Source: Elsinoe ampelina
Taxonomy: Eukaryota
DNA: 64,000 nt
Direction: 5' to 3'
NCBI GenBank assembly: GCA_010093995.1
Contig: ML992501.1
Span: forward strand, 1,155,047-1,219,046
Below are positions 2,195 through 29,387 of this stretch, in pieces. The first letter of the stretch is position 1. Every line of letters starts with the position of its first letter. The notes beneath the pieces were generated by a model. That model was not told the DNA's origin. It saw only the letters and a list, made by a program, of their open reading frames with translations, and did no database searches. The translations under genes and the position numbers were made by a program.

Positions 2195-2405
2195 TGTAAT
2201 AGAGTATCTAGATAGAGCAGGTATAATGTCTCTAAGATAGAGAAGCGATAGAGGAGAAGTATACACTATATAAATATAACAATAAATTCCTAATCTCTCT
2301 ATAGAAGGTTAGGAACTACTACTATATATACTATGTAGGATTGTAGCTAGAACAACGTATCTCTAACGTCTATCTACTAGCTATAAGTTTATAGTTCCTG
2401 TTATA
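2195..2405 (-). repeat. 3' LTR of Gypsy B
   Basis: tgtaatagag...ttcctgttata; direct repeat of 9911-10121, with visible differences being transitions. Confidence 0.95.
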
Positions 2406-2930
2406 ATTGCCTTCTTCTCTATAGGTCTATTCTTAGGCTAGTCCCTCGTTAAAACTCTCTAGTAGTAGAGAAAGAGTAGACTACCTTTGGAGCGTTATTA
2501 CGCCGTATACGGAGGTCTATATATAGGGTCTTAGCATTAGATAAGGAATGTAAAGTATAGCTCTACTCGACTTTATATATGAATTTACCTTACCTAGCAC
2601 ATGTAATAACGTTATTCTCTTATCTCTTAGCTACTATTATACTAGCTATAATAACAATTAGTAGGCTACCTTATTTCTTCTCGTATCTTTCTTCTCTTAA
2701 TTAGTATAGGAGCTTTCTATTGTCTATAATAATAGGACAATAGGACAATAGAACGCTCTAATACATATACGAGACTTCTCCCTCGTTAGAATGTCTCTTC
2801 TCTTTCTTTTAAAAACCCTTTTACTAAAGTATAGCTCTCTACTCTCTACCTTGTATTTTGTACTAATATCTCCTAGTATCTCTCTAACGTCTTATTGTCT
2901 TTTCTCCGCTATTAGGAACCTTCTTTTAAC

Positions 2931-3616
2931 ATGTCTTCTCTAGTAAGTACTACCTCTAGTAGACCTAACTATAGCTAGATCTAGTGTAAAGGTACTCCGC
3001 TATTGTCCCCTAGTTACTTTAACCCTGTTCTTATTAAGGGGAGTTCTTATATTAACTGCCTTAAGCTCTCTACTAAATATATAACATTAGACAACTCTAA
3101 CTTTACTAATAACTCTCGCTACTATAAGGAGTAGAACAACTATGCCTTCTACTAGCTCTATAGGCTCCGCTATAATAGCTATGCCTTTATAGGTCCGATG
3201 TCTATTCTATGTCGGAGTAATACTAACATTCCTAGTTTCTTAAGCGCTATAATACTAAGCTTAATACTACTAGAGTTATCTATAAGGCTATCTATGTCCG
3301 CTATTACAATAACAAAGATAAGCACTCGGCTGCTATACTCTCTAACAAGTAGCGCATTTATAGCACCTACGCTATAATAGTAGAATATATTACTACTTTT
3401 AAGGCTAAATGTATTTCCGCCGAGAAGAAGAAAAAGAGAGAAGAATTTAACTCTAATAACAATTCGCCTATAACCTATAAGAACTTCGCTGCCTTACTTA
3501 CTAGTAGCTAAAAGACTAACGAGTTATTAGCAAGGATTATTAGCGCCTAGCCTACTAGGAAGGCTCTTGCCTACGCTACTACGCCGGCCTCTAGTAGTAC
3601 TACTAGTAGAGCTTAA
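2931..3616 (+). pseudogene. Antisense spliced accessory gene 1 of Gypsy B; six-Cys zinc-cluster-like protein (RIP-damaged)
   Basis: Intact ATG at 2931. Cys-compatible codons at 3048, 3057 (intact TGC), 3120, 3150, 3159 and 3180 give C-x2-C-x20-C-x9-C-x2-C-x6-C. Intron 3189-3235 has a RIP-altered donor ataggt, TACTAAC branch and TAG acceptor. The frame continues with only TAG/TAA (RIP-type) stops; the 3' end is uncertain. Confidence 0.7.
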
Positions 3617-4018
3617 GAGATTTAGAGAGTTAGAGTAGTTACTAGTATAGTCTTCGGGTTTCTAGGTATAAGTATAGGTTCCTTAGTCGATGTAATAGCT
3701 TAGAACTGTCGGAGATAGATTTTGCCTTTTAGAGTTTATAGAGTTTTTTGCTTTCTACTTCTTCTTTTTGCCTAAGTCTCTTGTTTTATAGCCCCTAGCG
3801 GAGCTATAGCTCTTAAATTGCCCTTGCTCCTTTATTAGGGGCCTATTATCCCCTTAGGTATTATTATATTATTAAGAGTCTATTATTAAGGTAGGTATTA
3901 TTAAGGAGAGTATTATTGTTTAGATAATAGAGAAGCGATATATATATACTATCTTTTCTCTTTTTCTCCTTAATCTTCTTAGACCTCTTATTCTCTCTAT
4001 CTGCTTAACTTCTCTACT

Positions 4019-4638
4019 ATAATATTAGAATCCTATAGTATTACGACCTACTATGTCCCTACTAATTAGATTAATAACTCTAGCTATACTATGTCCTTTA
4101 AGTCTCTAGAGATTGCTAATGTTATTATAGAGGCGATACACTGTCTCGGATTTAGTAGAGACTTCTCTAGTAACTATAACTATAACTATAGTAAGAGCTC
4201 TAAGCCTAAGTTCCTATAGTTCTAGACTCCTTCCGACTATGCTATGCTAGTGCACTACTGTTAGTGCAAGCCTTGTATTTACTACTAGACCGCTATATAC
4301 CTTAACTATAAGTAGGCCTAGTCCTAACGTATTTATAATAATAATATAAGTACTTTCCTCCGCTACCGTTTCTATCGATACTTCTACACTAAATGTGTCT
4401 TTATATGTTTTTATTCTACGTCGTCGCTATAATAGCTAACCTATAGTAGTATAACGTCTCTTATACTTCGCTTATTAAGAGTCTTATTTCGACCTAGTAT
4501 GCCTTTAATACTACTATCTATATTTAGAAGTCTAATAAAGATATAATAGAGTCCCTACGTAGCAATCTTATCCTTAAGCTAGTAGAGCTAGATAAGCCTA
4601 AAGATTTAGAGAATAGAGTTAAGATAGACCTCTTATAA
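4019..4638 (+). pseudogene. Possible second antisense spliced gene of Gypsy B (Cys/His-rich N-half, acidic tail)
   Basis: Frame with several intact TGT/TGC/CAC codons and only TAG/TAA stops. Candidate intron 4346-4446 (ataagt...GCTAAC ctaTAG). The last exon de-RIPs to an acidic E/D/P-rich tail. Confidence 0.4.
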
Positions 4639-7600
4639 TTCGCTAGTGTTATATAAGAGACACGTTATTAGGCTAATATTGTACTTTTTTATAACATAGA
4701 CTTACTTTTTTTTTTAAATCTTAATCTTGTATTATTCTCTTACCTCTCTCTTTCTCTATAGCGTAAGTTTAAGCTCTTCGAGCCTTATAAGTCCCTTACT
4801 TAATATAGTATTACTTCGCTATTATACTTAGAATAAGGCTCTTCTTCTCGAAGTTCTCGATTTTACTAATAGTATTCTATAGATGCTCTATTAGCTCCTA
4901 GCTAGCTTCCTCTTTAGGATAGCCTTTCTAGAGTACCTTATAGTAAGTCTTACCTCTAATAAGGCCCTTATTAACTACCTCTTTAACTTTGTATTTTTCT
5001 TTCCCCTTAATCTCTACCGGTAGTAAAGCAATGTTATTACCTTATTAATAAGCCTTAAGGAGAGATATGTAAAAGGTTAAGTAGATCGATTTTATATATA
5101 CTAGAAGGTTAAGTTAGTATACTTAGTAACCTACTGTCTTAGCAACAGTAAATAGACCTATAAACTTCGCTACTAGCTTCTTCTTTAGCTAGAGAGACTA
5201 GAGGTTCTTAGTACTTAGTATAACTTCTTAGCCTTTCTTAAACCTTATCAGCTAGTGCTTCTTATTATAGTATACCTCCTACTACGCGATAGTGTTAAGC
5301 CTATACTACTTAAGTTCTTCTCTTATGTCTTATAGAGCCTTTACTCTTACTTCTACTACTAGTGCTTCTAGTAGTTATAGAGCTACCTTCTTCTCTATAG
5401 CGTTAGCCTTAACATCGTCGGAGAGACGTAGGACTATTCCGTAAATATAGCGAAGTAGGCTTACCCCTAGCGACGCGCTATAGGAGCTATTATAGGCAAA
5501 CTCGGCCTAATATAGCTAGTGTAGCTAGTTATCTTAGTAGAAATTAATAAACACCCTTAGGTACTATTTAATTATTTAGTTCTACTTCTCCGTAGCGTTA
5601 TTAGTTTAAGAGTAGAACACTATCGAGAGGCATCTCTAGACCTTCTATCTCTAGTAGAGAAACATCTAAAATTTAAACTTAAATAGGGTACCTCTGTCGG
5701 TGATCTAGCTTCTTAGGAACCTATAGCAACTAAGGATCTCCCTCTCTACGATGTTAGCTAACTCTTAGGTCTCTATATCTTTTCTTGCTAGAATGTATCT
5801 AACGTATTTAGACACTCTATCTACTAGCACTAAAATTAAATTAGTAACGGAGCTCTATTAGTCCTTCGCTAGAGGTAAATTAGTAATAAAGTCTATTAAC
5901 TAATACTAGAGTACTTCTCTAATAGGGGGCAATCTTAGAGCCTATATTTTACTATAGGGCTAATATTAAGGAACCTTTATTCTTTAACACTTGTTATAGT
6001 AATTTACGTATCTAGTAACGTCTATTGTTATGCCCTTCTAATAGTACTTCTACTTTAGTACGAAGAGTGTCTTTTCTATTCCGAGGTGGCCTACTATTAG
6101 ATTATTATAATTCCTATAGAGTATCTCTATAGTTAGCATTTTTATAGCTAGAATAAAGACTTTATCTTAAAATAGTAAGACACTATCGTCCTACTATCTC
6201 TAGCTCTCTCTCTTAGTAGTCTCTCTTTCTTTAGAATCGCTAAGACGCTCTAGTGTTGTCTCTACTATAGTATCTCGCCGCTATAGCCTCTTTACTAGGC
6301 TAAGTAGCCTTAGTAGTGCCTCTTTATATATATTATCTTCTTTCGTAGCTATTACGTATAGACGTCTAGGGCTAGTAAGTTCTCTACGATCTCTTTATAA
6401 TCTCTCTACTATAGTTATCTACGGGGAATAGTAAAAGGAACTACTTACCTCTAGAGGAGCGGACCTACTATCTCTACTCTCGTAGGGAGCTATTTTAGCT
6501 TCCGTATCTATGTCTAGCATCTCGCCTTAGGCTATAACACTCTCTTAGGTATCTTTAGATCTCCTAGTATACTTTACCTCGCTATGCTATCTTAGTAAGA
6601 AGTCCTCGGCAACTACTAAGTTTATATCTAGTATTTTACCTTATACGTCTTAGGTTAACTTAACCTACTTAGCTACTATTGTAGTATTAAGGAGGAGACG
6701 TCTCTCCGGCCTCTTATATAAGTCTCTTAGGACCTGTAGGTACAAGTCTACCTCGGCTTACTTGTCTCTAGTATCTAGGTCTAGCCTCCTCGATAGTCTA
6801 TTAGTAGAATTAAGCTTCTCTAGGTTATAGGTAATCTAGATATTATATTATAATAGCTCTTTACTAACGTAGGCCTATTAAGCTAAGAGCGTCTTAGTTG
6901 TTAAGAAGTATTTTAGGTTATTATAATCTATAAACATAGTAGTAGTAGAAGGAATAGAGAGGAGATACTACTACTAGTAGCGCGCTACCTCGAGGATAGT
7001 AAGTAGCTCTTAGTTATACATAAGCTAGTTTAACTCTACTCTCTATAGTTTCCGCGAATAGTACGTAATAGAGTACTATTAGACTACCTTCTCTTCGCTA
7101 TTGCTAAATAGTTACATAGTAATCCTAGAGATAGTAAATCTAGAGAAGTTAGTATATATCCTTATATTCTTACTTTTGTCGAAAAACTATAGGAGAGAAG
7201 TAGTTATAAAGCGGTCTTTAAGATATTAGAATAATTGCCTAGCACTATTAGTAAAGTAGAAAGGACCTACTTATTTTTCGTTTTTGCTTTCTATAAGTAG
7301 TTACATTATAGGTCTTATTATCTCTACGTAGCTGTTAATAAACTATTAGTAAAAGTTTATAAATCTAAGAAAGATTTAGAGTTCTTTTAGAGAAGTAGAT
7401 TCTAGCTAGTCTATAATAGCTTAAACTCTCTAGAGCTCTATTAAGACGCTCTCGGGGCCTAGAATATATTCTAGAAACTATACTTTCTTAACTTTAAAGG
7501 TGTACTTAGAAGCCTTTATAAAAAGAAGATACTTCCTAAGTTGCGCTAGAACTTCTTTAATATACCTATAGTGCTATAACAGGTCTCGGGAGTAGATAAG

Positions 7601-9910
7601 AATATTATCTATATAGACGATATAGTAGTAATTAACTAAGCTATTAAGGCATTAGCTAATATATAACTAGAAGGTAGCGGGAGTATTTATAAGGCTAAAA
7701 GGTATAACTATATATTTAAAATATCTATATCTATATTAGAACGCTATCTTCTATTCGTTGCCCCCTTTAATCTAGATATAGTAGTATACGTCCCTAAGAT
7801 CTATTTTTAAGTACACCTTAGCCCTCTAGATTCTATCGAGCATCTTAGTAATAAGGGGTAAAGGGTAGTAGTTCTTTACTAAGACGTTATTAAGACCTTA
7901 GTAGTTAACGTAGAGACGTAGCAACTTGTTAGCCTTAGGCATAAAGAGGATAGAAGCCCCTACGGGGCTAGTAGAGTAGTAAATATAGCTTAGCTTTAAA
8001 TTCTTAGCTAGGTACTCTCTAAGAGTACTTAGCTCTATCTTTATAAGGGTATAAATAGGTCCCTACGGGGGTTACTTCCCTTCGATAAGTTTAATTAAGT
8101 AGTTATATAGCGCTAGAGGGAGTATAGTAATAGCTTCCTTATTGTCGAATATATCTAAGAAGTTATAGAGCTAGCTTAGGAGCCTACTCTATAACGTTAA
8201 AATATTATCTTTATAAATTACATTTAAGAAAACTATATAGTACTATAGCTACTCTAATATTTCCTTAGTAAATTCTTCTACTGTTAGAAGTGTTATATTA
8301 ACGCTAGTAGGGCAATGTCTCTACCTCTAGCTTTACTAGTCGATATCTAGGTTAATACTAAAGAGCTACGTCTAGCCTAGTACTAAGTTATATCCCTTTA
8401 TCTCTACTAACTCGAAGCGCTATTAAATCTCCTTCGTGACGCTATAGTAGTTAGTAGCTTCTACTATAAGATAGTAGTATCCGTATAAGTGTATCTTATA
8501 CTAGTCGAGGGACTTTACCCTCGTTACGCTATTAGTGTATAGGTAAACTTCTTTCTCCTTTACGTAATAGTAGTTAATAAAACAAATATTAGCTTCTAAA
8601 TCTATAAGAGATATAGCTACGTAATTAGTAGATAGAGCTCTACCTTCCTAACTAAGGTAAATATCTATTCTTAGTTAGCTTAGTAGTAGACCTCCTTCGA
8701 ATACTCCTAGCTATATAGAGGCGAGATCTATAGCTAGAGTATCTAGTTTTTTGTCTTATTACAAGGGCAGTTAGAGTAGATATAGCTAGGTTGTCTATAC
8801 CTATAGCACTTTACCTCTAAGAGGTCGAGGCGACAGAGTATTAGAGTTATATTAACTCTAGACGTAGGGTCTTTAAACCTTCTTTTTTTCTTATTTTTGT
8901 TATTCTAGAATTTCTAGTTGCCTTCCTTTAGCTTATCTACGAAGTAGCGAGAGATATATGTCGTCTTAGAGATAGCTTAGCTTCTAAATACACTCTTAAT
9001 ATAAGTAAAGTAGAAGATAGCCTCGTCTTTGCCCCTTAGGGAGTCTTAGAGCGCTATATAGCTCTATTAATATACAGGCTTTACGCCGTTAACGAGGCGG
9101 CTTACGAACTAAGCCTTATCTATAGTAGTGTTACTAATTTCCTTAGTGTACTCTTCGAGGTATTAGGCGAACTTAGTAACTAATTAGTTCGACCTCTAAG
9201 CACTATTATAGAATAGTTAAGTGTATTTCAGGGCTCGGTTACTCTTGTCTATAATACGATCTTTAATCTATTCTTAAAAGTAGCTCTAGTTCTTAGCCTA
9301 AGGTCCTACGTTGTTAATATAGCTCTCCTATATCGTAGTAAGAGATTTATCTAAATAGCTAGCTATAAACTAGACTCGATCTTTACTAGTAAGATAGATA
9401 TACTTATAGACCCTAAAGACAGCGTAGTATAATCGAATAAATGCCTTTACGTCGGCGAGGTATATATATCTCTTTAGTTTCTCTAGTACCTCTAGCTTTT
9501 ATACTTTCTTAAGGTTAATCTAAAGGGAAAGCATCTCTAGAGAGATATCTAGATTAGGAGTTCCTCGAGAGATACTATCTTAGTATAACTAATTATTGTC
9601 GTTAGACTCCTCTTACTACTCTTATGTATTAATATAGGTCCTCTTCCGAAGGGGTCCTTCGCGCTTAATTACAAGAGCTCTCTAGATCTCTATATACTCT
9701 CTATTCTAGCGGAGTTAAGCTAGCTCTTCTTAGGTAGTACGTAGCTCCTCCTTAGATATATTAGAGAGGATAGGTTCCGATTAGGTAGCTTCTACTAAGC
9801 TAGTAGATATAGCGTCTATAGCGGATAATCTATCGGTCCTTTATTAAGCTAACTACGTTAAGACTATTAACCTAGACTATCTTAACTATAGTTTTAGGAG
9901 GAATTTAAAT

Positions 9911-10121
9911 TGTAATAGAGTATCTAGATAGAGCAGATATAATGTCTCTAAGATAGAGAAGTAATAGAGGAGAAGTATATACTATATAAATACAACGACA
10001 AATTTCTAACCTCTCTATAGAAGGTTAGGAACTACTACTATATATACTATGTAGAATTGTAGCCGGAACAATATATCTCCGACGTTTATCTACTAGCTAT
10101 AAGTTTATAGTTCCTGTTATA
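9911..10121 (-). repeat. 5' LTR of Gypsy B
   Basis: Direct repeat of 2195-2405, followed by TSD tctag. Confidence 0.95.
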
Positions 10122-11408
10122 TCTAGTCCTAGAAGCTATAAGGTGTAGAACTAAACTATACTACCTACAATAAAGAGCTTCTTACTATTATAGAAGTAGC
10201 GTAGCACTAGCGCTAGTACCTACTTAGCGCTACTACCTCGATTAAAGTCCTCTCTAACTATAATAACCTTAGGTATTTCCTAACTACTAAGAAGCTTTTA
10301 TAGCGCTAGGCCTACTACGCCGAGGTACTAGCGTAGTTTAATATTATTATCTAGTACTATAGTAGAAAGACTAACCTAGCTAATAGCCTATTACGTAGGC
10401 CTAACTACTATAAGCATAAAGAAGATATATAGAAAGAGTACTATATATTAGTCCCTCTCTTAGAGTAAGCATTATAAACGCAAAGTAAAGGAGTTATACT
10501 TATATCTATTATAGATAAGAAACCTAAGGCTAGTAGGGTCTAGGAAGATAGTAATAAAGCTAGTATAGCTTATATGCCTTAAACTACTCTCTAACGTAAC
10601 GCGCTTATATAATTCTAACGTACCTCTAGAATAGCGCCTATAAGTCTACCTATTACCTTAGGAGTGCTATAGCTATACTAAGAAGAGTTAGAGCCTCTAG
10701 AGAAAGAAGAGTAGCGCCTAGAGAGCACTTATATAAATCTTCCTCTAAGCCTAACTAGCAATATTAAATTAGAACGATATACACCTACCTTAGCATTCTA
10801 GGACGTACCGCTACTCGCCTAGGAAATAATAGAGAGCTAAGAGCATAAAGATAGTATAACGCCTATATAACTCCGGGACACCTCTAGTAGAAAGCCCGCT
10901 ATAATTTTAAACTAGAGTTAGTAGATTATACGCCTCTATACTACGTAAGTACTAGTAGATAAGACTACGTATATCTCTTCTACTCCTATGTTACTCTAGG
11001 ACCTTATCTATATAGTATAGTAAAGAGACGCCTTTACTTATAGCAAGAAATAGAAACTTCTAAAAGAGAGAACCTTAACTAGTAATAGTACTACTCCTAA
11101 GTAGAGCCTATCTAGCAATAGCTTACTCTAGAACGAAGATAAGGTATATATCCTAGAAGAAACTACCTTAAGAGTAGAGCTTATATAGCGTAATTATAAT
11201 AACTCCTTAGGGAGTTACTTTAGCTATATAAAGACCTACCTTAATATAAGGAGAAAGTACTAGTAGCTAGGTATATCTATCGCTATAAAGGTATATATTA
11301 AGCGCTATAATAGCTACTAAAGGCATAAGGTAACGTAGTATAAGCCTTATAGCCTCCTATAACCCTTGCTAATCCCGCTTATACTTAAGGCCTTATAACA
11401 CTAGTTAC

Positions 11409-11610
11409 TGCTAAGAATATAGCTCTCTCTAGATAATTAGGCCCGAAGGTCACATGACTACAGGTTATGTAATGCTAAGTCCTAGGGATTCATAGCTATT
11501 CTTTCCTTCGGTAGATAGACTCCTTAATTAATTAACTCGTCTATCACCTAACTAGTGTGCGGATTAGTTCTATATAATACTCTACCCCTAAACGTGCCTT
11601 CTACTTAACA
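11409..11610 (+). repeat. 5' LTR of Copia C
   Basis: tgctaagaat...ctacttaaca; direct repeat of 16526-16727. Confidence 0.95.
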
Positions 11611-14600
11611 GGTTATAAGCCTAGAGCTTATAGCACAAGTATAGGATTATATATATAGTAGTTGGCCTACTACTTAAACAAAACGGAAGCGGAATTATAA
11701 TATCCCTACCGCCTTATAGTCAACTATCTAGATACCTTTAGTAAGCCTAGTAGACTATACTATAAGTCGTGAAAGATTGTACTACTTAGGACAACAAGTA
11801 GGAATAGCACTTCTATTTAGTATAGGTTTAACTCCTATAATTGTTCTACTATAGCTGCTGTTTATTAGCTAGATTAACTAAACATATTCGATTTATTAAC
11901 TTCCTCTAAGGCCTAGCTAGCCTTATAGACAACTATTAACTAGAGGTTATTAACTAAACTCGACCTTTATCTATTTATTTAATTCTCTTCTCCTTAGAGA
12001 ACTTAATTCCTAACTATAGAAGATTAGTCCTTATCTTTAAGAAGACTAGTTATTAAGCTTAATAGACTTAACTAGAGAGAATAGTTCTACTAGATAGAAA
12101 TATACCTTATAAGTAAGGATGCCTTCTAGACTATTCGTAGTTAGACTACTCCTTTAGTAACACTATTATCCGATAATACCTCTAGCTCCGTTTTAGTCCT
12201 ACCTATTAAGTCAAAGGACTAGTAAAAGGCTAATACAACTACTAAGTACTAGGTTGTCTAGTGTATCTTATAAGATAACAAAGAGTTACTATATAAGGAA
12301 GAGCTTATATTAGAATATTAGAGATTACTTAAGTCTAAGTACAAAACAAACCTTAAGGCAAGCGTAAGGGAGCTAGTTATCTAATTTGTAAACTATAAGA
12401 TAGATAAGTAGGACACTATTAATAAAGCTTAGTCCTACCTTACTAGCCTAGGAAGATAGATCGCTATTGTCTACCTAGATAAGGGTTATTAGAGGGCAGT
12501 AGAGAGATTATAGTAGCTTCTCTCTTCTCTTCCTAACGACTATAGGTTTACAAGGCAAGTAATTAAAGCAAGAGGATTAACTAATATAGATAAGGTCCTC
12601 CTTATTCTTAAGGAGGAAGAGAAACGCCTTAGTAAGCATAAGATTGCTATGTTTACTAGGGGGAGACTAAATTAAGGACCTAGTAGAAGTACAAGCTATA
12701 TATATATCCTCTACTTATAGGCTAGTTACACTATAACTAGATACTCTTAACTTTAAAGAGTATAGAGGCATATTTAGCCTTCCTATAGGATTACTAAGAG
12801 CCTACTAAGGAGGAGAAGATCTCTATTAGCTTCTAATAATCTAATTACCCTTGTTAGGCATCTCACTAAGAAGGTTAATAGACTAGAAGCAGCATCTAAG
12901 TTAAAGAAAGGTAAAGCCTTTACTACTACTAAAGGCCGGTCCGAACCTTTCTCTCTAATCTTAACTCTACTACCTAAAGTTCTATTAAGTAAAGAGGAAC
13001 TTAAGACTATAGGCTCTACATTAGAGGTATAAGGTAAGCTTCTATATTATTAGTAGATACTTAACTCTAGAGTATCTAACTATATAATAGATAAGCTAAC
13101 TCTCTTTAGGGGCCTATTAAGTAAGATACGCACTTAATAGATCTAGGTTAGGGGGGGTTACCTTTAGTTATAGTTAATAGGAACTGCTATTATTAAGACT
13201 AAGAAGGGAGATAAGATAAAGGTATAGGCTCTTTATGTACCTAATCTTAGTATTAATTTAGTCTCCTATCGTAAGCTATGTATAGATTTAGGAGTTTCTA
13301 GAGTTCTTAATTTAAATTCTTTTCTTGTTTTTAATTTATAAAAGCAGCTACTACTTAAAGCTAGAATTCGAGGGGGGGTATATATTATCTAATTCCTCTT
13401 TAAGCAGTTAGCTAATTAAAAGCTATATTCTAGATCTAAGCCCGGCTTAATTCTAGATTTAGCTAATTAGGACATAGTATTCCTTACTACTTAGCTAGTA
13501 ATTATATCACACACTAAGTATATACATCTAACCTAGGATAAGCAATATAAGGATCTTATTAATTTAAGACCCGACAACTCTAATATAGAGTACTAACTCT
13601 AGCATAGGAGATTTGCTTACCTTAGAGTTAAGAAGCTTAGAGATCTTTATAAGGTTATAACCCTTAAGAAGCTTATTAATTTAAACCATGATTTATTAAT
13701 CCTATATAAGGTCTGTTTCTTAACAAAGATAAGAAACAGAAGAGGCAAAACTTTATAGAGAAGACTAGAGGTTCTTTAGCTTATTTATACTAACATCTAT
13801 AGCCTAATTAAAGTAAGTAGGAAAGGATTTAGATACTTCCTAGAGCTTATAGATAGCTATTTAAGAATGACATAGATTATACCACTTAAGACAAGAGATA
13901 AAGCTCTATAGAGGCTTATTAAGTAGAAGCTAAGGGTTAAGAAGGAAAGTAATGCCAAAGTTAAGGTCACTAGATTAGACAATACTAGTAAGCTTAACAA
14001 GATCCTAAAGTAGTAGAAGCGCTAAGAAGACATCTATTACACAACTACTAAGCTATATAATTTAATCTAGAATAGACTAGTAGAGAAAGGCATCTAAACC
14101 TTAGAGAATAGTATAAGAGCAATACTTAAGGACTTAAAGATGCTAAATAAGTTCTAGCCTAAAGTAGTTTAGGTAGATGCATATCTAAGGAACAGGACAG
14201 TAACTAGACCTATAATCAATAATAAGCAAGTTACACTAATTAAGGCCTATATAGGCATTAAGCTATTAGTTAATTACATTAGAGTCTAGGGCTATAAGGT
14301 ATACACCTATATAAACCTAAAGTCCCTTCCTATATATAGAAGAAAAGATAAGCTTATAGACAGAGGGAGAGTAGGAGTATTCCTTAGCTATGTAGATAGA
14401 ACTAACAGGATATATAAGATATAGGCACCTAATAGGAAGGCAGTAATTGTATTACTAAATGTTAAGTTCTCTAAATTTAAGAAAGGTAGGAATATTAATC
14501 TTAGTATTAAGATTAGCACTACGAGCAATTAAGCACTAGTTAGGAGACTAATTAGTAGACTAACCTAGATCCGAGCCCGGCTTAATCCTAAGGTAGACTA

Positions 14601-16525
14601 ATTAGATTAGCCTATTTAGCAAGAAGTGCCTATAGGGAGAATCTTCTTATATATTAAGATCCTAAGGGTTAACCCTATTAACCTTATAGAATTCTAACGT
14701 AGAGAAGAGCTAATAGTTTAATCTATATTACCTAATTATATAGGTTAATCACTTAAGAGATTAAGAGATAAAGAATCTAATAATAAAGAGCCTAAGGTAA
14801 AGTATTATAGAGCATTTATTACTAAGTATATTAATTGGCAAGATAAGGTTAATAAGATTGCTATAATAGCCTCTATTAAGTAATATGTCCTAATTCTAAG
14901 AGACTACTATAAGGCTGTTACTAATCTAGTTTAGGGAAGTAAGTGGCAGGAAGTAATTAATATAGAGCTTAATACTCTAGGATTAAATAACACATAGGAA
15001 GAGGTTATCCCTCTAAAAGGATTAAACTTAGTAATATCTAAGTAGGTCTTTAATGTTAAATACAACACAGATAGCTCTATTAAGAAGTTCAAGGCTAGAC
15101 TTATTACTAGAGGCTTCTTATAGAAGTATAGTATTAACTATAAAGACACATTTACACTAATAGTTAGAGTAGATACACTAAGACTGTTCTTTACCATCGT
15201 GTATATACTTGACCTTAAATGTCATTAGGTGGATATTAATAATACCTTTATAGAATTATTCCTTAGGGAAGTAATTTATATAAGGCTACTACCTAGACTT
15301 AAGGTCTAACCTAGTATTGCCTTCTATATTCTTAGAAGCTTATATAGACTTAAGTAAGCTACTAGAGATTAGAATTAGTACTACATCTCTAAGCTTTTAA
15401 AGCTAGGCTTTACTTAGAGTAAAGTAGACCCCTATCTTCTTATATACTATAATAAGAAGATTATTTTCTTAGTTTATGTTAATAACATACTATTTATAGT
15501 ACAAAGCAAAGAGAACATCTAGTAGTTTAAGCAAGAGCTTAGTAGAATCTTTAAGATTAAGGATCTTAGTAAGGTTAGTAAAGTTCTTAGAGTTAAAGTT
15601 ATAAGGGACAGACAACAAGGAACCTTAAGGCTTAACTAGACCTACTATGTGAATGATATACTATAGAGGCTTAATATGACCTCTAACAAGGCTACTCTAA
15701 CAAAGCAGCTAATAGACAATAAGCTCCCTTAGAGAGCTTAGACTAAAGATGTAAGGTTTAGTAGAACTAAGTACTTATATGCTATTAGAAGCTAGATGTA
15801 CCTTAGTACTCTAACAAGACTAGATACTACCTTTGCCTTAGGAAGGCTTAGTTAGTTTATAGTAGATCTAATAGACAGCTATACTATTAAGATAAAGAAG
15901 ATATTAAGATATATTAGATTAACTAAAGATCTTAGTATAGTGTTTAGGAGGAATAGTAATAAGACTCTTAAGGGATATTCTAATTTAGACTATGCCTTAG
16001 ACAAGACAGATAGAGTCTCTATTCTTAGATACGTCTTTATGCTTATAGGTGGTCCTATTAGCTAGATAAGTAGGAAGTAGAAGTCTGTTTTAACCTCTAC
16101 TATAGAGGCTAAATATATAGTAATATACTCTTATATAAAGAGATTACAGTTCCTATCTTAGTTACTAAGAGACATAGACTATTATAAGATAGTTAGTTAA
16201 TCACCTTAGAAACTAACTATAAAGGAGTCTTAGAAAGCAATAATAAGATTACCCTTTACTACTAAGATTAATAGTAATAACTAGGTAGCTCTTTTACTTA
16301 TAAAGGAGCTATATACTTATAAAAGGGCAAAACACATTAATGTTGCTTACTACTACGTTAGGAGGCTATAGAGGGACTAGAGGATACAGGTTAAGTTTAT
16401 AAGGACAGCAGACATAGTAGCTAATAGGTTAACTAAGCTATTATAAGGTTAGAACTTTACGAGGTTTATAAAGTAACTTAGCTTATTATTAACCTAATAG
16501 CTTATCTATAGGAGCTAAGTAGAAG

Positions 16526-16727
16526 TGCTAAGAATATAGCTCTCTCTAGATAATTAGGCCCGAAGGTCATATAACTACAGGTTATATAATGCTAAGTCCT
16601 AGGGATTTATAGCTGTTCTTTCCTTCGGTAGATAGACTCCTTAATCAATTAACTCGTCTATCACCTAACTAGTATACGGATTAGTTCTATACAATACTCT
16701 ACCCCTAAACGTGCCTTCTACTTAATA
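16526..16727 (+). repeat. 3' LTR of Copia C
   Basis: tgctaagaat...ctacttaata (terminal CA RIP-mutated), followed by TSD gttac. Confidence 0.95.
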
Positions 16728-18000
16728 GTTACTTAATTTTATTACTAGCTTACTCCTAGTAGAGCTCTAGCCTAGCGTCGTTATAGACGCAATTATCGTA
16801 TATATCTATTACTTATCTAAGTTTAGTATCTATATACTAACGTTAACTAAGCTTAACGCTAGAGACTTTACTAATCTATTTAAAATAGATATTATAATAT
16901 TATTTAGAACGCTAAAGACGCTAGTCTTAGATAGAGAGTCTATCTTTATAAGTAAATTCTAGAGTACGCTATACTAGTACTAGAAGGCGTAACGTAAGCT
17001 TAGTACTAGTTTCTATCTATAGATAGACAACTAAACTAAAAGGCAAAACTAGACGCTAGAGTAGTACCTATACTACTTTATCGACTATTACTAGATAGAC
17101 TAGCTATACTAGGTTAAGTAGGCGCAATTCGTGTATAATAATACGTATTAAGCGTTACTATACACTACGCTAGTATAGTTCTTATTTACGTAGGAGATAT
17201 GCCTACCTAACAATATTAAGGCGCTAGCGCCGCCTAGCTACGCGCTAGCGTATAACCTGTCGGTCGATAACTAAGTATAATCTATTACCGAAACACGTGT
17301 AGAGCTTGCCTAACACCTATATAAAGTATAGAAAGACTAAGCGCTAGCCTATAATAGAGATTAATAAGCAAAAGTCTTCTATAATAGCGACAAGGTTATA
17401 CTTAGCACTAAGAACCTTCGTAGCGCTAGACCTAGCTATAAGCTATTAGCTAAGTATATTAACCCGTTTATAATTATATAACAAATTAGTACGTAGGTAT
17501 ATAAGCTACACTTACTAAACAAAATAAAGCTAATCTATAACGTCTTTAACGTTACGCTACTAGAGCTATATAGGCGTAGTAAGGGCGTATACCTACTGCC
17601 TCTAGAGGTAAAAGGGCAAGAAGAATATATTATTAAATATATCCTTAGCAAGGGCTATACTAGCACTCTAAAGGCGCTATACTACCTAGTAAAGTAGTAG
17701 GGTTACTCTATAGAAGAAAGCATATAGGAGCTAGTAAAAAACCTTATAAACGCTAAGGAATTACTATATAAATATAAGGTAGCTTAGCGTAAGTATAGCG
17801 CTAGCTAAACACTCTAGATATACTTAGGATTAACAAGTTAAAGGTATAAATTTTAAAGTAAAGAGCACCTAGGCGTAGCGCTAGGTTAGCTCGGGGTATT
17901 ATTAGCTTACGTAGGGAAAACGCTAGCGTAGTAAAGACTATAGAATTATACTAAAGCGAAGGGGGCGTAGTATAGGTATAGCGCCCTAGCTTTCCCTATC

Positions 18001-19726: not shown

Positions 19727-20858
19727 GTTCTACTCTAAACGAGATAGATATACTAGAAGTTCTACCTTAATTAGAGATAGGTTCCCCTAATAGAGTACTT
19801 TCGAGCGTAGCTCTAGCGTAGTATAGATAATAAGCTATATATAGTAGGCGTCGTCTAGGAGTAGTACTATCTTAATATAGAACTTATAACTATCGAGGAA
19901 CATATAGAAATTAGTAATTAACTATTCTCTATACTAGCGTAACGTAAAGAACTTTACTATGTAGCTATTACTACAGTTTTTAGAACTCTAGACTTAGTCC
20001 TAAAGCTAGGACTATATTAGGCTCTATAAGGGTATAACGCTAGCGCTCTTAGCGTATAAGTTCTAATTATAGCTAAGCTAACCTTTTAAGTAGCTAGTAG
20101 CTATATAGCACTAAGTAACTTCTTTAAAGTAGATATTTAGTACTATCTTAAAGACGTTATTATATATATATATAAATTCCTTAACTCTTACTATAATAGT
20201 AAACTCTAAGGCCTTAGAGTAGTATAAGTTTAGCATATACTCTCTTATAATTTATAGATTTATTAGATAGATATCGTTAGGTTATATATTGTCGAAATAA
20301 CTACGTAGCACTAGCGCTATAACTAGGAAGCAACTACTAAGTATATTCTTAAGCTAAGTAATACAAGTAAGAAGCGCTTTATATATAGTATTATTTTCTA
20401 TGTCGGCTATACTTCCTATAGAAGCTATATTAGCGTAGTAGAGTCTTAGCGCTAGCTCTTCTCTAGCCTAGCGATCTTTAATAGGAGTTGTCTCTAGAGT
20501 TATAGCTAATTCGGTAAATGTCTTACTAATAGCTAAGCTATTAGAGAGTTGTCTATACTAGTACTACTCTAGCGGTAGTTAGTCGTTTCGCTAGCGCTAA
20601 GTATAGAGTGCTATCTTGTCTATATAGCTCTATTTAATAGGATATAAGAGAGATTAGAATTATAACAAAGATAGAATATTAGAGCTAGAAAGATAAGTAT
20701 ATAGGAGTAGAATAGGTGTTATACTAGTGTACCCTCGATTGTTATAAGACTAATCTCTACTCTATCTATTCTATAGATAAGAAGTGTTTTATTCTTCTAC
20801 GGAGAATAGTATCTCTAGAGTAAGCTAGTATAGCGTACTTACTATATTAGTTCTTATA
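19727..20858 (-). mobile_element. 5' fragment (LTR + leader/gag) of Gypsy A', a second copy of family A in opposite orientation, interrupted by A
   Basis: 20661-20858 is the reverse complement of the A LTR. 19727-20036 is the reverse complement of window bases 1-310 (same length, transition differences). Confidence 0.9.
20661..20858 (-). repeat. 5' LTR of Gypsy A'
   Basis: 198-bp inverted copy of 19529-19726. Confidence 0.92.
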
Positions 20859-21517: not shown

Positions 21518-21704
21518 TATTAAAGCCTTGTATTAAAGCTACGTATGTCGTAATATAGAGAACGCCTATCTAACCGAATAGTCCGTTAGTAGTAGAACTA
21601 ATTACTATTAAGCTCTAGGCATAAGCGCCGTATAGGATATTTAAGTATATTACATAAGTAGGACTAGCCGCTACTAAGTGCTGCTCTAATACTAAGCTCT
21701 TATA
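21518..21704 (-). repeat. 3' LTR of Gypsy D
   Basis: Direct repeat of 28021-28207; adjacent to PPT. Confidence 0.93.
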
Positions 21705-22118
21705 ATTGCCTTCTCCTCTAGGAGAGCTGTCCTTAGCTCTCGACTAGAAGTATATAACGTATAGTGTTATTCGGAGGTAATATAGACGTAAGGTAGTTAA
21801 GGCATTTTTGTAAAGGCCTTATATATGTCTCGTATAATGTCTAGTAGTAGTAGTCCTAGGAATCTAGTTCCTAGAGAGGCGTTTATCTAGTCGCTATAGC
21901 GCTAAAGCTAATCGGCAGTAATAATATTACTTTTCTTAGAATTCCTAGTAGTATTATAGGAGACATATACCTTACGCTAGCGGCTATAATAAAGATATAG
22001 TGCACTAGAGGTTAGTCTATATTATCTCGTTGTTTCTCCTTATATTCTTCTTTTCTACCTAAAATATATTTATATTTTGTTAATCTCTTACTATATAAGT
22101 GTACTACCTATAACTATT

Positions 22119-22914
22119 ATATTATCTAACTCCGGCCCCTCCGTAGCTAATACTCGTAGTGTAAGGTCTACTAGCGTCTAGGGAGCTATTACTACTAGCG
22201 CCGACTCTATAACTCTCTTACTTCCTAAAGAGAAGGCCGATACCTATACTAGGTATACTAATAGCGTTGCTGAGAGTAAGCTAATAGAGCTCTTATAAGG
22301 GACGTAACTAATTTATAGTAGGTTATATTTATACTAGAGGCAACTTTAGTATCTTCTTCTATTGTAAGTACGAATACTACGCCTATAGTAAGTATATATA
22401 TAAGCCGCTCCTATCTATCCTATATAACTTATATATCGACGCCTTTAACATAGTTACTAAGCTTAAGGCCCCCGACTAGGCTAGCATTACTGTAGCTAAG
22501 AAGTATATATACGCTATAGCCTATAAGAACGTTCCTAAGGTTAAGAAGTTTAAGACTATACTTAAGGTATACTACACTAATAAGAATAAGGTTGTTAGCG
22601 AGGTCTTGACTCCTTATATAGGGCCTATAGGCGACTTACTTAGTAGTGTTATACTCGAGCGTAAGAAGGTTAAGGAACTATAGAAGATTAGGTATAGCCT
22701 TTATAGCTTAATTATTATTAACAAGGAGGTAAGTTAGACTATACTCTATATACGTTATAAACATAGCTAATAGGTTTAGATAGTGTATAACTCTAGTAGT
22801 TCTACTACTAAAATCGACTATGTTATAGCTAGTAAGTAGCTTATAGCCCCTATAGTACCTATAGGGGAGAATCTTAGTATAGAGGTAAATAAGGAGAATA
22901 GTAAGGATAAGTAG
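22119..22914 (+). pseudogene. Antisense spliced accessory gene of Gypsy D; six-Cys zinc-cluster-like protein with acidic tail (RIP-damaged)
   Basis: Introns 22276 to 22318/22321 (GTAAGC...CTAAT...TAG) and 22729-22779 (GTAAGT...GCTAAT...TTTAG). The middle exon of about 135 codons has only two TAG stops. De-RIP reading TCTRC-x9-C-x12-CEYCARGKHVCEPLP; the last exon ends in an acidic run before TAG 22912-22914. Confidence 0.7.
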
Positions 22915-25900
22915 GCATATACGAGACAAGTACGCGTCCTTAGCGCTATATCTATAATAAGGCCTTACGTAGAGTATAATAGAGTATAGAGTTTAGGTTA
23001 ATACCTGTAATAGTAGCGTAAGTATAGCGCTTTATTAAAATATATTTCCCTAGGTAAGGAGTCTACTCTTTGCTCTATTTATATGTTTATATAATCTATC
23101 TACTTATATGCTCTATAATCTACACCTTTAGTAACCTTTCTTAGCTACTCTTAGCTACGACTTATATATAGTAATTAGCTCTCTTATATTTATGTAATTC
23201 TCTTTAGGTTCCTAGCTATTAAACTTAATAGGCTAGTCCTTTTACTTTACTAAGTAGAATACCTTACTCTTTGTAGTTCTTCTACCTAGAATCTCCTCTA
23301 CTATCTACTTATCTACTTTGTTAGTAAGAGGTATACTCTCTTCTAGCTCCTTACTAGCTCTACCTATCTATAGTTTAAGAAGAGATATATAAAAGACATT
23401 ATAGATGCAATACTAACTTAGTAAAGCTAGGCGATACACCTACGATCTAATTGTGTTAAGTATGCGAAATAGGCTAAGGAATTGTAGTTCTATCTTCTTC
23501 TTTAGTATAGGTAGCTATAAGTTCTTAGCTAAGAGTAGTACTAAGTTACCTACGCTATATACCTTTAGTATATACTTCCTATTATAGTACTTAGCCTAGT
23601 AAGTAGAAGCCTCTTTCTATTACTCTATTAGCTTTATATATGTATCTCGTAAGTGTTACGCTAACTCTACTACTACTAGTACTTTTCTCTCTAAAGTCTT
23701 ATTCTAAGACTTAATAGCTATTACCTCTAACTCTAGATAGTAGCTATATATTATTTAGAAGAGGCTTATACGTAGCGTAGTATAAACGCTATTATTGCTT
23801 ATAAATTCCGCTTGTAATAGACGTTTAGCCTAGTTGTTCTATAGCTCTATATAGTAGCACCTTAGGTACTGTTCTAACGTCTAGTTTTACTGCTTAGTTT
23901 AACCGTCTATCTATAGGTAAAAGGCTATACTAAGCCTACGCTTTATACGCGTTTTGTAATAGAATTTACTCTAGAACTAGCTAGTAAAGACCGATCCTCG
24001 ATTGCTTACTATTCCTCTTAGGACACTATAATAGTGAATAATATAGTTATATAGGATCTCTACTAGCTCTATAGACGTATACTTCTTAGTAGTAGAGACA
24101 TATAGTAACATCTTAGTATAATAGTCTATAATTACTAGTACTATATTATAGACGCTACTACCTTACTTACTTAGTAGTAAGTTAGTAATAAAATCTATTA
24201 TAATTTCTTACTATAGGTAGTCTAGTATTAGTAGCGTACGTAGCTCGCTATAGAGGCAATAGTAGCGCGCCTTGTACTTCTAGCAAACTTAGTATAACTA
24301 TATATAGTTATTAATATCTTTTCTTATAGTTAGCTAGAAGTATTTCTATAATAGGAGCTTAAGCGTCTTATTCTTACTAAAGTAACTAGCCTATTCGCCG
24401 TTATAATATATATATAGTACCTACGCCTTAAGCGTACTATTATTTAGAATAACTAGTAACTCTTTATAGAAGAGAAGATTATCTTATATATTCTATAGCG
24501 CTCTACTCTTGTCTCTACTACTTTCCGCTTGCGAATGTAGCTTTATAATCTTAGAGTCTTATCCTTATAGTAGCTCTACTACTAACATTAGGTTAGTAGA
24601 TAGATCTTTAAAGGGATCCTCTCTTATAGTTACTATAACTACGACTTACTAGGTCGTTATAAGCCTCTAGAAGTTCTTAGAAGAGAAGTCGCTACTATAC
24701 GGCGTATAGGCGGCCTAGGCCTATCCTAGAGTAGCCTCGTATATAGCGTAGATATGTCTAATAAGCGGAGTAGCTTCCTTAACATTAGTAGTCTAGTCCT
24801 ATATACGAAGCTTATTCTAAAGAGTAGAAAGGAGATATAACACCTCTTACTCTTCTACTATATAGTTAGAGCGCCTCGAGGGCGTATTAGCTAGGTTCCT
24901 CGTGCCTAGCTAATACTCTATTATAAAGTTAAAAGTAGCAAGGAAGGTAGCCTAGTAAGCTTATTAGCCGTTTAGCTATTTTAGCTTTATAAATCCTTAG
25001 AGATTGTTATAGTTAGTAAGTACTTAAATTATATATAAGACACCTTCGAGGTAGTATTACTATTGCTTAAATACATATACAATTACTAATAGCTCTTAGT
25101 CGTACATCTCGTAATTGTACTTAGCTAGGATAAACTTCTTTAACTAAAAGGCTATTAGGTGCTAAGCACTGTCGAATAGTTAGGATAGAATTACTACCGC
25201 TATAAACTTTAATATATCGCTTTTAATACGTAGAGGCAGCGTAGAATTATAGTAGTAGAGGATAGAGGCACGCGTAAATATGTCTCTAATGTCCTTAAAT
25301 ACCTACTATTCGCTTATGCCCTACACGAAAGAGCTATACTTATAACCTTTTACTAAGTCTTTAAGGAGGCTAGAGAGGAAAGTAATAATCTTAGAGTAGT
25401 ACTATATAAAGCAACGATAGAAGTTTATAAAGCTAGTAAACTACTAGACCTTATAATAACTCTTTAGCCTTAGCTAATTCTTAATTATAGTTACTCTACT
25501 AGGATCTATTAAGACGCCTATAGTAGAGATAATATAGCTAAGAAATTCTATCTCCTTAGTAAAGAATTTACATTTCTTAAGGTTAATATATAAAGTAAAC
25601 TTCTGTAGCTTTACTAGAATCTTATAAATGTAATATATATAGTTCTCTCTTAAATTGCTATAGATAAGAATATTATCGAGGTAGATAATATAGATAGTGT
25701 TAACTAGCCTACCTAGCGCCTTATTAATATACACTTAGAAGGTAGCTAGGGCGTTAGTTAATCTAAAAGGCATAACTAAGTACTTAAAATAGCTATAGCA
25801 CATACGGAATATAGTCTTCTACTTATTGCTACGCTTAATAGAGATTCTATAATAGGCATCCTTAAGATCTAGCTTCGAGAACTACTAGGCTTGCCCGAGC

Positions 25901-28020
25901 TAATTAAGCGTCTCGCTAATAAGTAGAAGCGGGTAGTAATTCTTAATAGTTATCTTATTTAAGCCCCGATAATCTATATATAAGCGTAGACTACTATCTT
26001 TCTTAGGCACGAATAGGATAGAAGTACTTACCTTGCTTATAGAGCGCCTAATTTACTCGTTTAATTAAGTAGTCTCGAGATAGTTCTTAAGCACTTTAAG
26101 CTCTTTAACCGAAAGATTGTATAAGGGCTAGAATAGAGGCCTTCTACCCGGCTCTAGCTTAATTACATACTTAGCGCCTAAGAGGCGTAGTAGATTTATA
26201 ATATCCTTATAGATAAAGATATTAAAGAACTCTACGAACTCTAATAGTAGAGCCGAGTCGCCTACGGCACGAGTATAGTTCTTAGACGAAGTCTATACTA
26301 TAGTATATACTCTCGGCTCGTTCTTAAGGTCCTTTATAAAGTCTTCTAGTTTACGTAAGTAAACTATATGTAAGAAGTAGCTATATAACTAGTTGTCTAT
26401 AGCGCTATCTATAATTACGTACTGTCTTCTCTACTATAGGCGCTCTAAAATAACTAGAGGGCCTAGTTCTAAGTCTATAGCGTAGAAGAGGCCAATTATC
26501 TCCCTAAGGTCGCTATAGAAGTCTACTAGGCGTATATAAAGCTAGTACGCGCCGTAGTAGAATCCGGCTTACTCTATAAAGGAAAAGATACTTAGATACT
26601 AAGTATGCTTAACTCTTAGTAGATTATAACGAAGAGTAAATACCTAAGATATAAGATTAACTTCTATATAATTGTCTATAAGGAACATATAGTTTTTACG
26701 CCCTATAGGCGCTACAATAGTACTATAATAGAGCAGCGATAGATAAGCGTTAATTAAGAGAGAAGAAGAGCTTAGTTATGCTCTTTAGCTAAGCCCTTAG
26801 AGTTTCCTAACTTAGAGTTATTAGACTTGTCTATAGTAGTAACCTTATATACCGCCTAAGACTCGCTATTCTTCTATAGGTGCTTTAACCTATACTCCGG
26901 CTTAATATAACTAGTTTTGCTATAACTATAGCACTTAGCGTCTCTCTTCTACTTATTAGAGAAACTTCTCTACCTACTAAACTATTTAGTAGATAAGTTA
27001 GTAGCTTTACGCTTATAGTAAGCTTAAGAGCTACTACTAGACTAGTAGTAGTATTCTCCTTAGGGGCTACTATAACTACTATACTTACGTAGGTAGTTAC
27101 TTTTATCTTTCTATATAGTACACTTACTACTAGTATAGTCTATAGACTCGATATATAAGTCTAAAGAGACTAACTTCTAGCGCGTAGCTAGAATAGTATA
27201 GTGTTTAATAATAGTAATACGTAGTGTAGGCTATAGCTTAGCAAGGAGATAGTGCACTCTCTACTCTTTAGAGTAGAGAGCTAGTTACTTCTTAAGGGTA
27301 GCGAGTTCCGAGGTAAAGGCTTAGATAGATTATCCCTTATATTATTAGGCTCCCTTGTATATAAGAGTTATACGTACTTTACGATTAATAGAGTTATTAA
27401 CTATGTCCTATATAAACTAGCGGAATTACTTCTATATATAGTCTTCTAGGCTATTTACGTAGTAGTAGTAGTACTATATCTTATCTAGCTTACCTACGAG
27501 AAATATAACTCTATATAGCACCTTCTACTAGTTAGTAGAATAAGCCTTAGAGGCTAGAGTAAAGATAACCTTAAGATTCTTTAGGAAGAATCTTACCTCT
27601 TTTAGAGTCTTACCCTAGTAGGGATAGAGTTCTCTTAATTAAGGTTGTCTAGAGGACAGCCTTACGAATAGTTCGCCGCTACTATATATACTCTATATAC
27701 TAGCATTACTTGCTATAGGCTTAGTAGAAGCACGCGAGCTATAGTTAAAGCCTCCTTAGTAGTATCCTATATTACATATATAGTATATTTACTTAATCTC
27801 TTCCTCGAGGCTCTAAGCCTTAAGCTCTAGCTCTAAATACTTATACTTAGTACGTAGGTATAGTAGCTACTCTATAAGGGTCTCTTCTTCCTCTAGAGGA
27901 GTCTACTCGATAGAGTTTATCTCTATAATATTAATTATATAAGGCGCTAGTACCTCGCTAATAGAGTTCTAGTTGTCTATAGAGTCTAATAGATTACAAC
28001 TATAGGGGAGCAATTAGAAC

Positions 28021-28207
28021 TATTAAAGCCTTATATTAAAGCTATATATGTCGTAATATAGAGAACACCTATCTAACTAAATAGTCTATTAGTAGTAGAA
28101 CTAATTGCTATTAAGCCCCTAGTATAAGCGCTACGTAGGATATTTAAGTATATTACGTAAGCGGGACTAGCTACTACTAAGTACTACTCTAATACTAAGC
28201 CCTTATA
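28021..28207 (-). repeat. 5' LTR of Gypsy D
   Basis: Direct repeat of 21518-21704. Confidence 0.93.
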
Positions 28208-28869
28208 GTTCTTAAGGCTATCTATAATACTATTTAGGCTTAGAATAAGGTTTTAGTAATAACTATCTAGAACTACTAGCTTTACTCTACCTTACTTAGT
28301 GTAGTTTAAGGCCTAATTACGCTTAAGGACTAGTAGAGGAAGTATAGTAATGTTCTACTAAGGACTACTAATATAGAGGTAGAGGTAGTAGTATCTTAGT
28401 AGCTATATACTTTATAAGCTAAGAAGTATATCTATCTAGCAATAATAGTAGCTAGCCTATTATAACTAGAGGAGGAGGTAGTAGAGAATACCTATAAAGA
28501 GATTAGTAAGGCGTTCCTTTAGTAGATTACTAACTAATATACTCTAGCTAAGGAAGAGAAGAAGGAAGAGAAGAAGACTATAGAGAAGTTTCACTATATA
28601 AAGCACTCTAAAGCTCTTTAAGCACTTGTATAGCTTTAGCTATATAAAGAGCAGTTAGAGGAGTGCAACTTTAAGCTGCTAAAGGAGGTAGAGGAGCATT
28701 ATAAAGTTGTTTAAGCACGCTTAAGAGCCTCTATAAGGCAGCTAGATATCCACTAGTTCTTTAGAGGTAGCTAAGCATAGAATTGAGCAATTTAACGGCT
28801 ATTACACCACCTTATCTGACACACCGTTTGACTGGCTATACCGTTAAAGGAGCACCGGTACCGCGCTAA

Positions 28870-28890: not shown

Positions 28891-29387
28891 TAGATCTACC
28901 CTGATGATCACCTGCTGGGGTCCTCGATGGTGAAAGTTTCTTGCTTGACCACATAGCTACATGCCTTCGCCTCACGTGTATTGGGAAGGTCCAATGCAGC
29001 CAAGGTTCAACTCGCGTGGTCCCGCTCCACTTCAATATGCTTGCCGCCTCTATCAGTGGGTTTTTGATCTGCATTACGGAAGACTGTCGGTCCATCACAA
29101 TTCTACCGAACTAGCCTTTCAGCAGCGCGCAGGCCCAGAGATCAGCCAGTGCGTCTTTCTACCGCACTTCCTGGACTCCACCCCTTCTCGGCGTACCCAG
29201 CGACGAAGTTTTCCGCCTCCAATGCGCAGCCTTCGCTGCAAATGGGACGCATTTTTGGGAAGCCATTGCAGAAGCCAAGAGGCGAGAATGCTTAGCCATG
29301 AAATGTTGGATTCAGTGATCGTATAAGAACAAGGTAGGGCCGTCTTTAGAATATTCTTCCGCGGCTAAGCATCACCGTCTACACAAT

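Follow-up and report, generated by a model that had tools for sequence, protein, structure and literature searches.

Does the DNA between pol and the 3′ LTR of a RIP-wrecked Ty3/Gypsy element in Elsinoe ampelina hold the remains of a gene, and if so, from which strand was it read, how was it spliced, and what would it have encoded? In this study, we addressed these questions at positions 2931–3616 of a 64-kb stretch of DNA (the window, to which all coordinates refer), which an initial annotation made from the letters alone had read as a spliced antisense gene of the element, here called B. Our analysis indicates that 2931–3616 very probably represents the remains of a dead, spliced antisense accessory gene of B. 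The former antisense spliced gene is well supported, with its intron at 3189–3235, although the end that had been placed at 3616 is probably too early. For the overall reading, a spliced antisense gene for a putative zinc-binding nuclear regulator of the element, we give a probability of about 0.7.

A RIP-degraded element beside gene-rich DNA

Bases 1–29000 of the window are RIP-dense (GC 30–37%, composite RIP index 1.2–2.3), and the remainder is gene-rich (GC about 54%). The border at 29000 is abrupt, with no leakage of RIP visible in the index, and the first gene past it is a flavin amine oxidase (29319–31498). A neighbouring gene in the window falls into a 90%-identity cluster with a protein of Elsinoe batatas; the genus includes crop pathogens. 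TGA, TCA, TGG, and CCA are nearly absent from bases 1–29000, where TGT and TGC persist. Given this persistence and the fact that copies differ most at CpG, RIP in these bases also hits CpG and can create new TG. Bases 1–20036 form a nested stack in which element A (plus strand) is broken by B (2195–10121) and by a CpG-poor LTR element (11409–16728), and bases 1–310 recur inverted at 19727–20036.

Element B, a RIP-degraded Ty3/Gypsy element of the chromovirus type, lies on the minus strand at 2195–10121, nested in element A. Its 5′ LTR (9911–10121, minus) and 3′ LTR (2195–2405, minus) are 211 bp in length and 92% identical, TCTAG flanks it on both sides as a target duplication (2190–2194 and 10122–10126), and its composite RIP index is 1.6–2.1. 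The 3′ LTR, which a purine tract adjoins, is the likely site of an antisense promoter. Pfam recognized a pol remnant in a single frame (4781–8770, minus) with reverse transcriptase (RT), RNase H, an integrase zinc finger, SH3, and a weak chromodomain; RT, RNase H, and integrase stand in the order expected of Ty3/Gypsy elements. This pol is 36% and 28% identical to the intact protein P0003 across two stretches. The chromodomain scores below the cut-off for Pfam Chromo (15 bits, E = 0.024), and its region aligns with the C-terminus of P0003, which has PF00385. The antisense region of B is flanked by pol and the 3′ LTR and is read in the direction opposite to gag-pol.

Other copies of B were seen as contigs from two runs of one sample (160 and 112 contigs), possibly the source sample, and they cover all 30 bins of the region. 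In these contigs, 169 of the 177 variant places are transitions. The present copy had been proposed as the clearest starting point for reconstruction, and this holds in part: over the whole variant tally, it has C or G at 93 sites where other copies differ, but T or A at 76. Among the 40 variants listed, of 185 in all, it keeps C or G in 26; position 3189 and the five TAY codons discussed below are not among these 40.

A coding region in an alphabet that RIP cannot change

RIP produces transitions only. We therefore scored purine against pyrimidine by codon position, an alphabet that RIP cannot change. The optimum of a two-frame model was 146; in 1000 dinucleotide shuffles submitted to the same optimization, the score averaged 47 and never exceeded 95. 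In the best model, the switch of frame falls at 3231–3264, that is, at the intron. When the two exons were tallied each in its own frame, the periodicity was highly significant (p = 4e-10), against p = 0.09 for the unspliced stretch. It is absent from the leader upstream of the ATG (p = 0.2) and from 3617–3990 taken whole (p = 0.33), and the same two frames were selected by a codon model after training on the frames of the RIP-hit pol. A coding region thus lies between pol and the 3′ LTR of B, and the purine/pyrimidine test can prove such genes in RIP-wrecked DNA.

The periodicity is the same on both strands and does not itself give the strand. The assignment to the plus strand rests on a weak codon test, on the splice signals, and on the context of the ATG. 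It is very improbable that the coding strand was the minus strand, in the same sense as pol, with mirror frames joined by a frameshift instead of an intron. Such a gene would fit the self-complementary nature of R-N-Y periodicity, the mirror frames, which contain similarly few stops (three each), and the location of the mirror of exon 2 in the pol frame. The codon model, however, favoured the plus strand by 12.1 bits (a weak test, as the four mutated controls ranged from −3 to +10) and scored exon 2 at 9.6 on the plus strand against −4.3 on the minus strand. Near the switch, the minus strand has no branch site followed by YAG; the ATG context of B resembles that of the antisense genes of two intact elements described below, L001 and L021; and the extra cysteine genes of intact elements are antisense.

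Layout of the antisense gene and its intron

The plus-strand gene starts with the ATG at 2931, after a leader of 525 nt (2406–2930) that was correctly described as pyrimidine-rich in the initial annotation: 2780–2930 is 70% pyrimidine, against 55% farther upstream. With low confidence, the leader may contain a 5′-UTR intron (2765–2876, plus), with a donor-like site at 2765, ACTAAT at 2862, and TAG at 2874–2876; UTR introns are also predicted in L001 and L021. Exon 1 (2931–3188, plus) has 86 codons, a purine/pyrimidine periodicity of its own (p = 4e-4), and four in-frame TAG stops due to RIP. It is followed by a phase-0 intron of 47 nt (3189–3235, plus), recognized by an in-phase donor together with the frame switch, and by exon 2 (3236–3703, plus).

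Exon 2 is periodic at p = 5e-8 over 3236–3613 and contains three internal stops before the TAA at 3614. Its maximal periodic segment, 3249–3700, adjoins a TAG at 3701–3703, and position 1 is a purine in 19 of the 25 codons of 3617–3691. As the frame bias continues to 3700, the TAA at 3614 is probably a product of RIP; the gene probably ended at about 3703 and may then have had about 240 codons, within an overall estimate of 210–240. Four TAG in exon 1 and three internal stops in exon 2 mean that this copy is dead. The basic run K-K-K-K-R noted earlier is present at 3425–3439 (plus) and is NLS-like by sequence; among the variants listed, one falls inside it, at 3432 in six to seven contigs per run, and it keeps the residue basic.

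Beyond the gene, a second coding-like block occupies 4035–4701 in three successive frames (p = 2e-3 for 4022–4300), putatively on the plus strand; it may be a second gene or further exons. It has branch-like sites at 4061, 4115, and 4435, and no Pfam match was found for it.

The splice signals that had been claimed, a degraded donor, TACTAAC, and TAG, are all present. Positions 3186–3194 read TTTATAGGT, the branch site TACTAAC stands at 3221–3227, and the acceptor TAG at 3233–3235. Within 3105–3203, position 3189 is the only RIP-degraded donor that is in phase and compatible with the consensus, and it is preceded by T, a RIP context. Two other in-phase candidates, GC-type donors at 3144 and 3183, were rejected for mismatch to the consensus. 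The length of 47 nt fits the seven intron-like patterns of the genic half of the window (47–60 nt). Among the variants listed, other copies have no indel near the intron, which argues against a private frameshift as the source of the switch.

Taken singly, these motifs carry little weight. TACTAAC followed by YAG is expected 0.43 times per shuffled tail, which is chance level, and RIP itself tends to produce sites of this perfect form; single triads of the form TRY-x2-TRY-x6-TRY number 75 on both strands of 28.9 kb. It could accordingly be argued that TA-rich decay alone yields TAY, TAG, and TACTAAC and that the gene was assembled from noise. This is scarcely credible, since the periodicity is found in a RIP-immune alphabet, the leader and 3617–3990 show none, and 0 of the 1000 shuffles reached the two-frame score, which refutes it. 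The combined motif, TRY-x2-TRY-x6-TRY-x2 with degraded donor, branch site, and YAG, occurs once on both strands of the 28.9 kb and in 0 of 1000 shuffled tails, with a pattern written after this site, L001, and L021 had been seen. Tests therefore support the position of the gene, that it once was coding, that the frame switches, and how its splice signals are arranged.

A putative cysteine cluster before the donor

Exon 1 has TAY codons at 3048, 3120, 3150, 3159, and 3180, all in frame with 2931. Counting back from the donor, TAY stands 3, 10, and 13 codons before it, an arrangement with a chance of about 0.003–0.01 given how often TRY occurs in exon 1. The TRY codons of this exon follow the spacing of two C-x2-C-x6-C triads (3048/3057/3078 and 3150/3159/3180), between which lies a TAC TAT pair at 3120–3125. 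TRY codons number 10 in the last 47 codons (p = 0.007 compared with pol).

Codons 3048–3059 read TAT ATT AAC TGC. They had been taken as C-I-N-C with one unmutated TGC; the letters are as described, but the cysteine reading depends on reverting RIP, and our searches found no protein relative that would bear it out. Only one TGC survives in the cluster. The pol of B offers a parallel: of its four conserved Cys columns, three are now Tyr and one is Cys, the same pattern as Y-I-N-C. In that pol, just 3 of 31 conserved RIP-target columns (Cys, Trp, His, Gln, Met) survive (about 10%), so a true G may be missing from a set of few copies, which makes its absence a weak refutation of the reading. Moreover, positions 2985 and 2987 are C in five to six contigs per run, which indicates that the TGT of codon 19 was made by RIP from a CpG codon; a surviving TGY is thus not proof of an ancestral Cys.

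From these patterns of codons, it seems rather likely that the product had a zinc-binding cysteine cluster. An improbable alternative is that B carried a real spliced antisense gene of an unrelated family, in which the TAY codons descend from Tyr and His. In its favour, the exon resembles neither intact six-Cys family, a double triad alone is not above chance (181 of the 1000 shuffled tails contain one), the TRY excess over all of exon 1 is modest (13 of 86 codons, p = 0.04), and the TGT of codon 19 is RIP-made. Against it, TAY lies at exactly −3, −10, and −13 from the only fitting donor, where L001, L021, P0060, and P0061 have Cys. We prefer the cysteine cluster.

Searches for relatives of the B protein

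No sequence relative of the product was found. A phmmer search with exon 2 against 1.84 billion representatives gave no hit, and no Pfam family was matched by either exon, RIP lowering the power of such a search. With tblastn, the best E value of both exons against the 88 loci surveyed below was 0.76, and with MAFFT exon 1 of B does not line up with L001 or L021. When exon 1 was aligned in a RIP-aware manner with two profiles and six intact proteins, no score left the range of the shuffles: against the intact L001/L021-type profile, it scored 27.7 (null 26.2 ± 5.7, with 29 of 100 shuffles as high), when mutated controls at about 42% identity reach 57–90 and the null lies near 26.

A purine/pyrimidine tree of 65 elements with RT and integrase, from which element A and the shorter loci were left out, placed B on a long branch between the side of L009, element C, L010, and L015 and the rest. 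B is not sister to L001/L021 in this tree, and its nearest RT relative, L009, has no antisense Cys ORF. The match of B to the intact elements is therefore one of architecture, not of sequence.

Antisense cysteine genes in intact elements

We surveyed 88 loci, comprising 8 viral loci and the best 80 of 571 metagenome matches. Judged by eye, 4 of the 88 have a clear antisense Cys-cluster gene and one more, L029, is a candidate; many of the loci stop soon after pol. A regular-expression scan of all loci for a Cys triad plus intron was too strict and missed L001 and L021. These two have predicted GT donors two codons after C-x2-C-x6-C and further introns, with splicing predicted from sequence alone. 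P0060 and P0061, the only two matches of one search, read on into the intron and have V-C and V-S at the same point. In L039 and L041, the gene is unspliced, the spacing looks canonical, and the leader is shorter than 50 nt. The distance from ATG to LTR is 525 nt in B, 521 in L001, and 477 in L021; in the unspliced L039 and L041 it is 29 and 45. Two of five loci from a genome collection have ORFs similar to those of L039/L041.

Four intact proteins share 23 invariant columns, including six Cys, at 35–42% identity to the first. This bears on the idea that the gene acted mainly through an antisense transcript limiting the element via double-stranded RNA, with the protein secondary, as has been proposed for antisense ORFs in general (PMC7264820). 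That idea has a slim chance at best, as the codon bias of B is strong and the invariant columns point to selection on a protein.

Pfam Zn2Cys6 (PF00172) gave no match above the cut-off for L001, L021, or the exons of B, for which RIP lowers the power; L039 matched it weakly (14 bits against a cut-off of 21, E = 0.056), and Zn2Cys6 proteins are among the low-TM neighbours of its Atlas model. An Atlas search with the L021 exon had a top score of 0.78, which is a lead only, and the AlphaFold model of that exon has a low mean pLDDT of 46.

Further antisense regions were observed in passing. L029, of another Gypsy lineage, has a long antisense ORF (minus strand; 369 codons between stops) about 1.4 kb after integrase, whose product shows a six-Cys motif and an acidic tail. 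L090 (6623–6400) and L093 (7865–8362, and 6370–6780 on the minus strand) carry tandem Gypsy pieces with antisense six-Cys ORFs; both are filed as Bacteroidota MAGs and are probably mis-binned fungal contigs. In the window, element C (21518–28210, minus) shows two periodic antisense blocks at 22080–22900 (plus), where the frame switches and a run rich in TAY resembles a Cys cluster. Periodic antisense blocks also follow the integrase of element A (18890–18000, minus) and include several branch-like sites. When the exons of B were compared, in a RIP-aware manner, with its second block and with the antisense regions of elements A and C, the best scores came near the top of only 12 shuffles each, and with 18 tests made, no relationship was accepted.

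Proposed reading of the B gene

We propose that B carried a third gene opposite gag-pol, starting at the ATG at 2931 and with one coding intron (3189–3235). Its transcription would have started at a promoter within or close to the 3′ LTR and run inward. Such a gene could keep its introns, since they would lie on the strand opposite the genomic RNA and would not be spliced out before reverse transcription. The predicted product would combine an N-terminal zinc-binding cysteine cluster, a basic nuclear signal, and a helical tail. It most likely would have served as an accessory regulator in the nucleus, with the DNA or the transcription of the element itself as its target; that it was a DNA-binding regulator of the element is possible but somewhat doubtful. 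RIP would then have killed the copy through at least seven stops and the loss of the donor.

A wider picture, which we put forward tentatively and regard as unlikely, is that fungal chromoviruses are complex retroelements. In several lineages, antisense genes with introns would encode a non-canonical zinc-cluster protein, whose role would be to bind the LTR or to oppose silencing by the host; proteins no longer alignable would share an intron position of ancient origin; and B would have had two such genes. The present copy of B, which is dead and has no close intact relative, adds little alone. The intact L001, L021, L039, and L041 are natural representatives for testing nuclear location and the binding of zinc and the LTR.

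Comparison with known systems

Zn2Cys6 clusters have the spacing C-x2-C-x6-C-x5-12-C-x2-C-x6-8-C, in which 5–12 residues is the usual linker. As in Gal4-type Zn2Cys6 proteins (PF00172), two C-x2-C-x6-C triads can be read in B, but 23 residues separate them, or 20–21 separate the second and third Cys if 3120/3123 are used. This spacing is not canonical, and B is not assigned to that family.

A close architecture is that of L001/L021 (with P0060 and P0061), which have in common with B an intron in phase 0, placed two codons past C-x2-C-x6-C, as well as a basic helical tail and a leader close to 500 nt in length. They differ from it in having no detectable sequence similarity, different linker lengths, a separate branch in the pol tree, and three predicted coding introns, where B has one.

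Among published systems, PMC7264820 describes antisense extra ORFs between pol and the 3′ LTR, calls their function unknown, and includes brtn of Boty in its list. brtn is an additional antisense gene of Boty-like (BcGypsy1) elements in Botrytis cinerea and Sclerotinia (Zhao et al. 2011, as cited in PMC7264820 and PMC8365987); the latter source notes brtn for BcGypsy1 and reports that a BcGypsy3 transgene raised aggressiveness. By description only, brtn and the B gene are alike in belonging to fungal Ty3/Gypsy elements and in lying antisense between pol and the 3′ LTR; the B gene differs in its host, a Dothideomycete, and in being present as a dead copy. The plant aORF-3R genes (maize Grande gene23, rice RIRE2, and Silene Retand) have the same position and orientation as the B gene, and the product of the maize Grande antisense gene is nuclear and has its own promoter (PMC7264820). 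They belong to plant elements, however, and that source, in the part available, mentions no such Cys cluster for them, the comparison again being by description. Literature titles yielded no spliced six-Cys antisense gene in fungal Gypsy elements, in a search that did not extend to the text of Zhao et al. (2011). As extra antisense genes in this position are already known, the B gene is a well-supported new example of such genes rather than a surprise.
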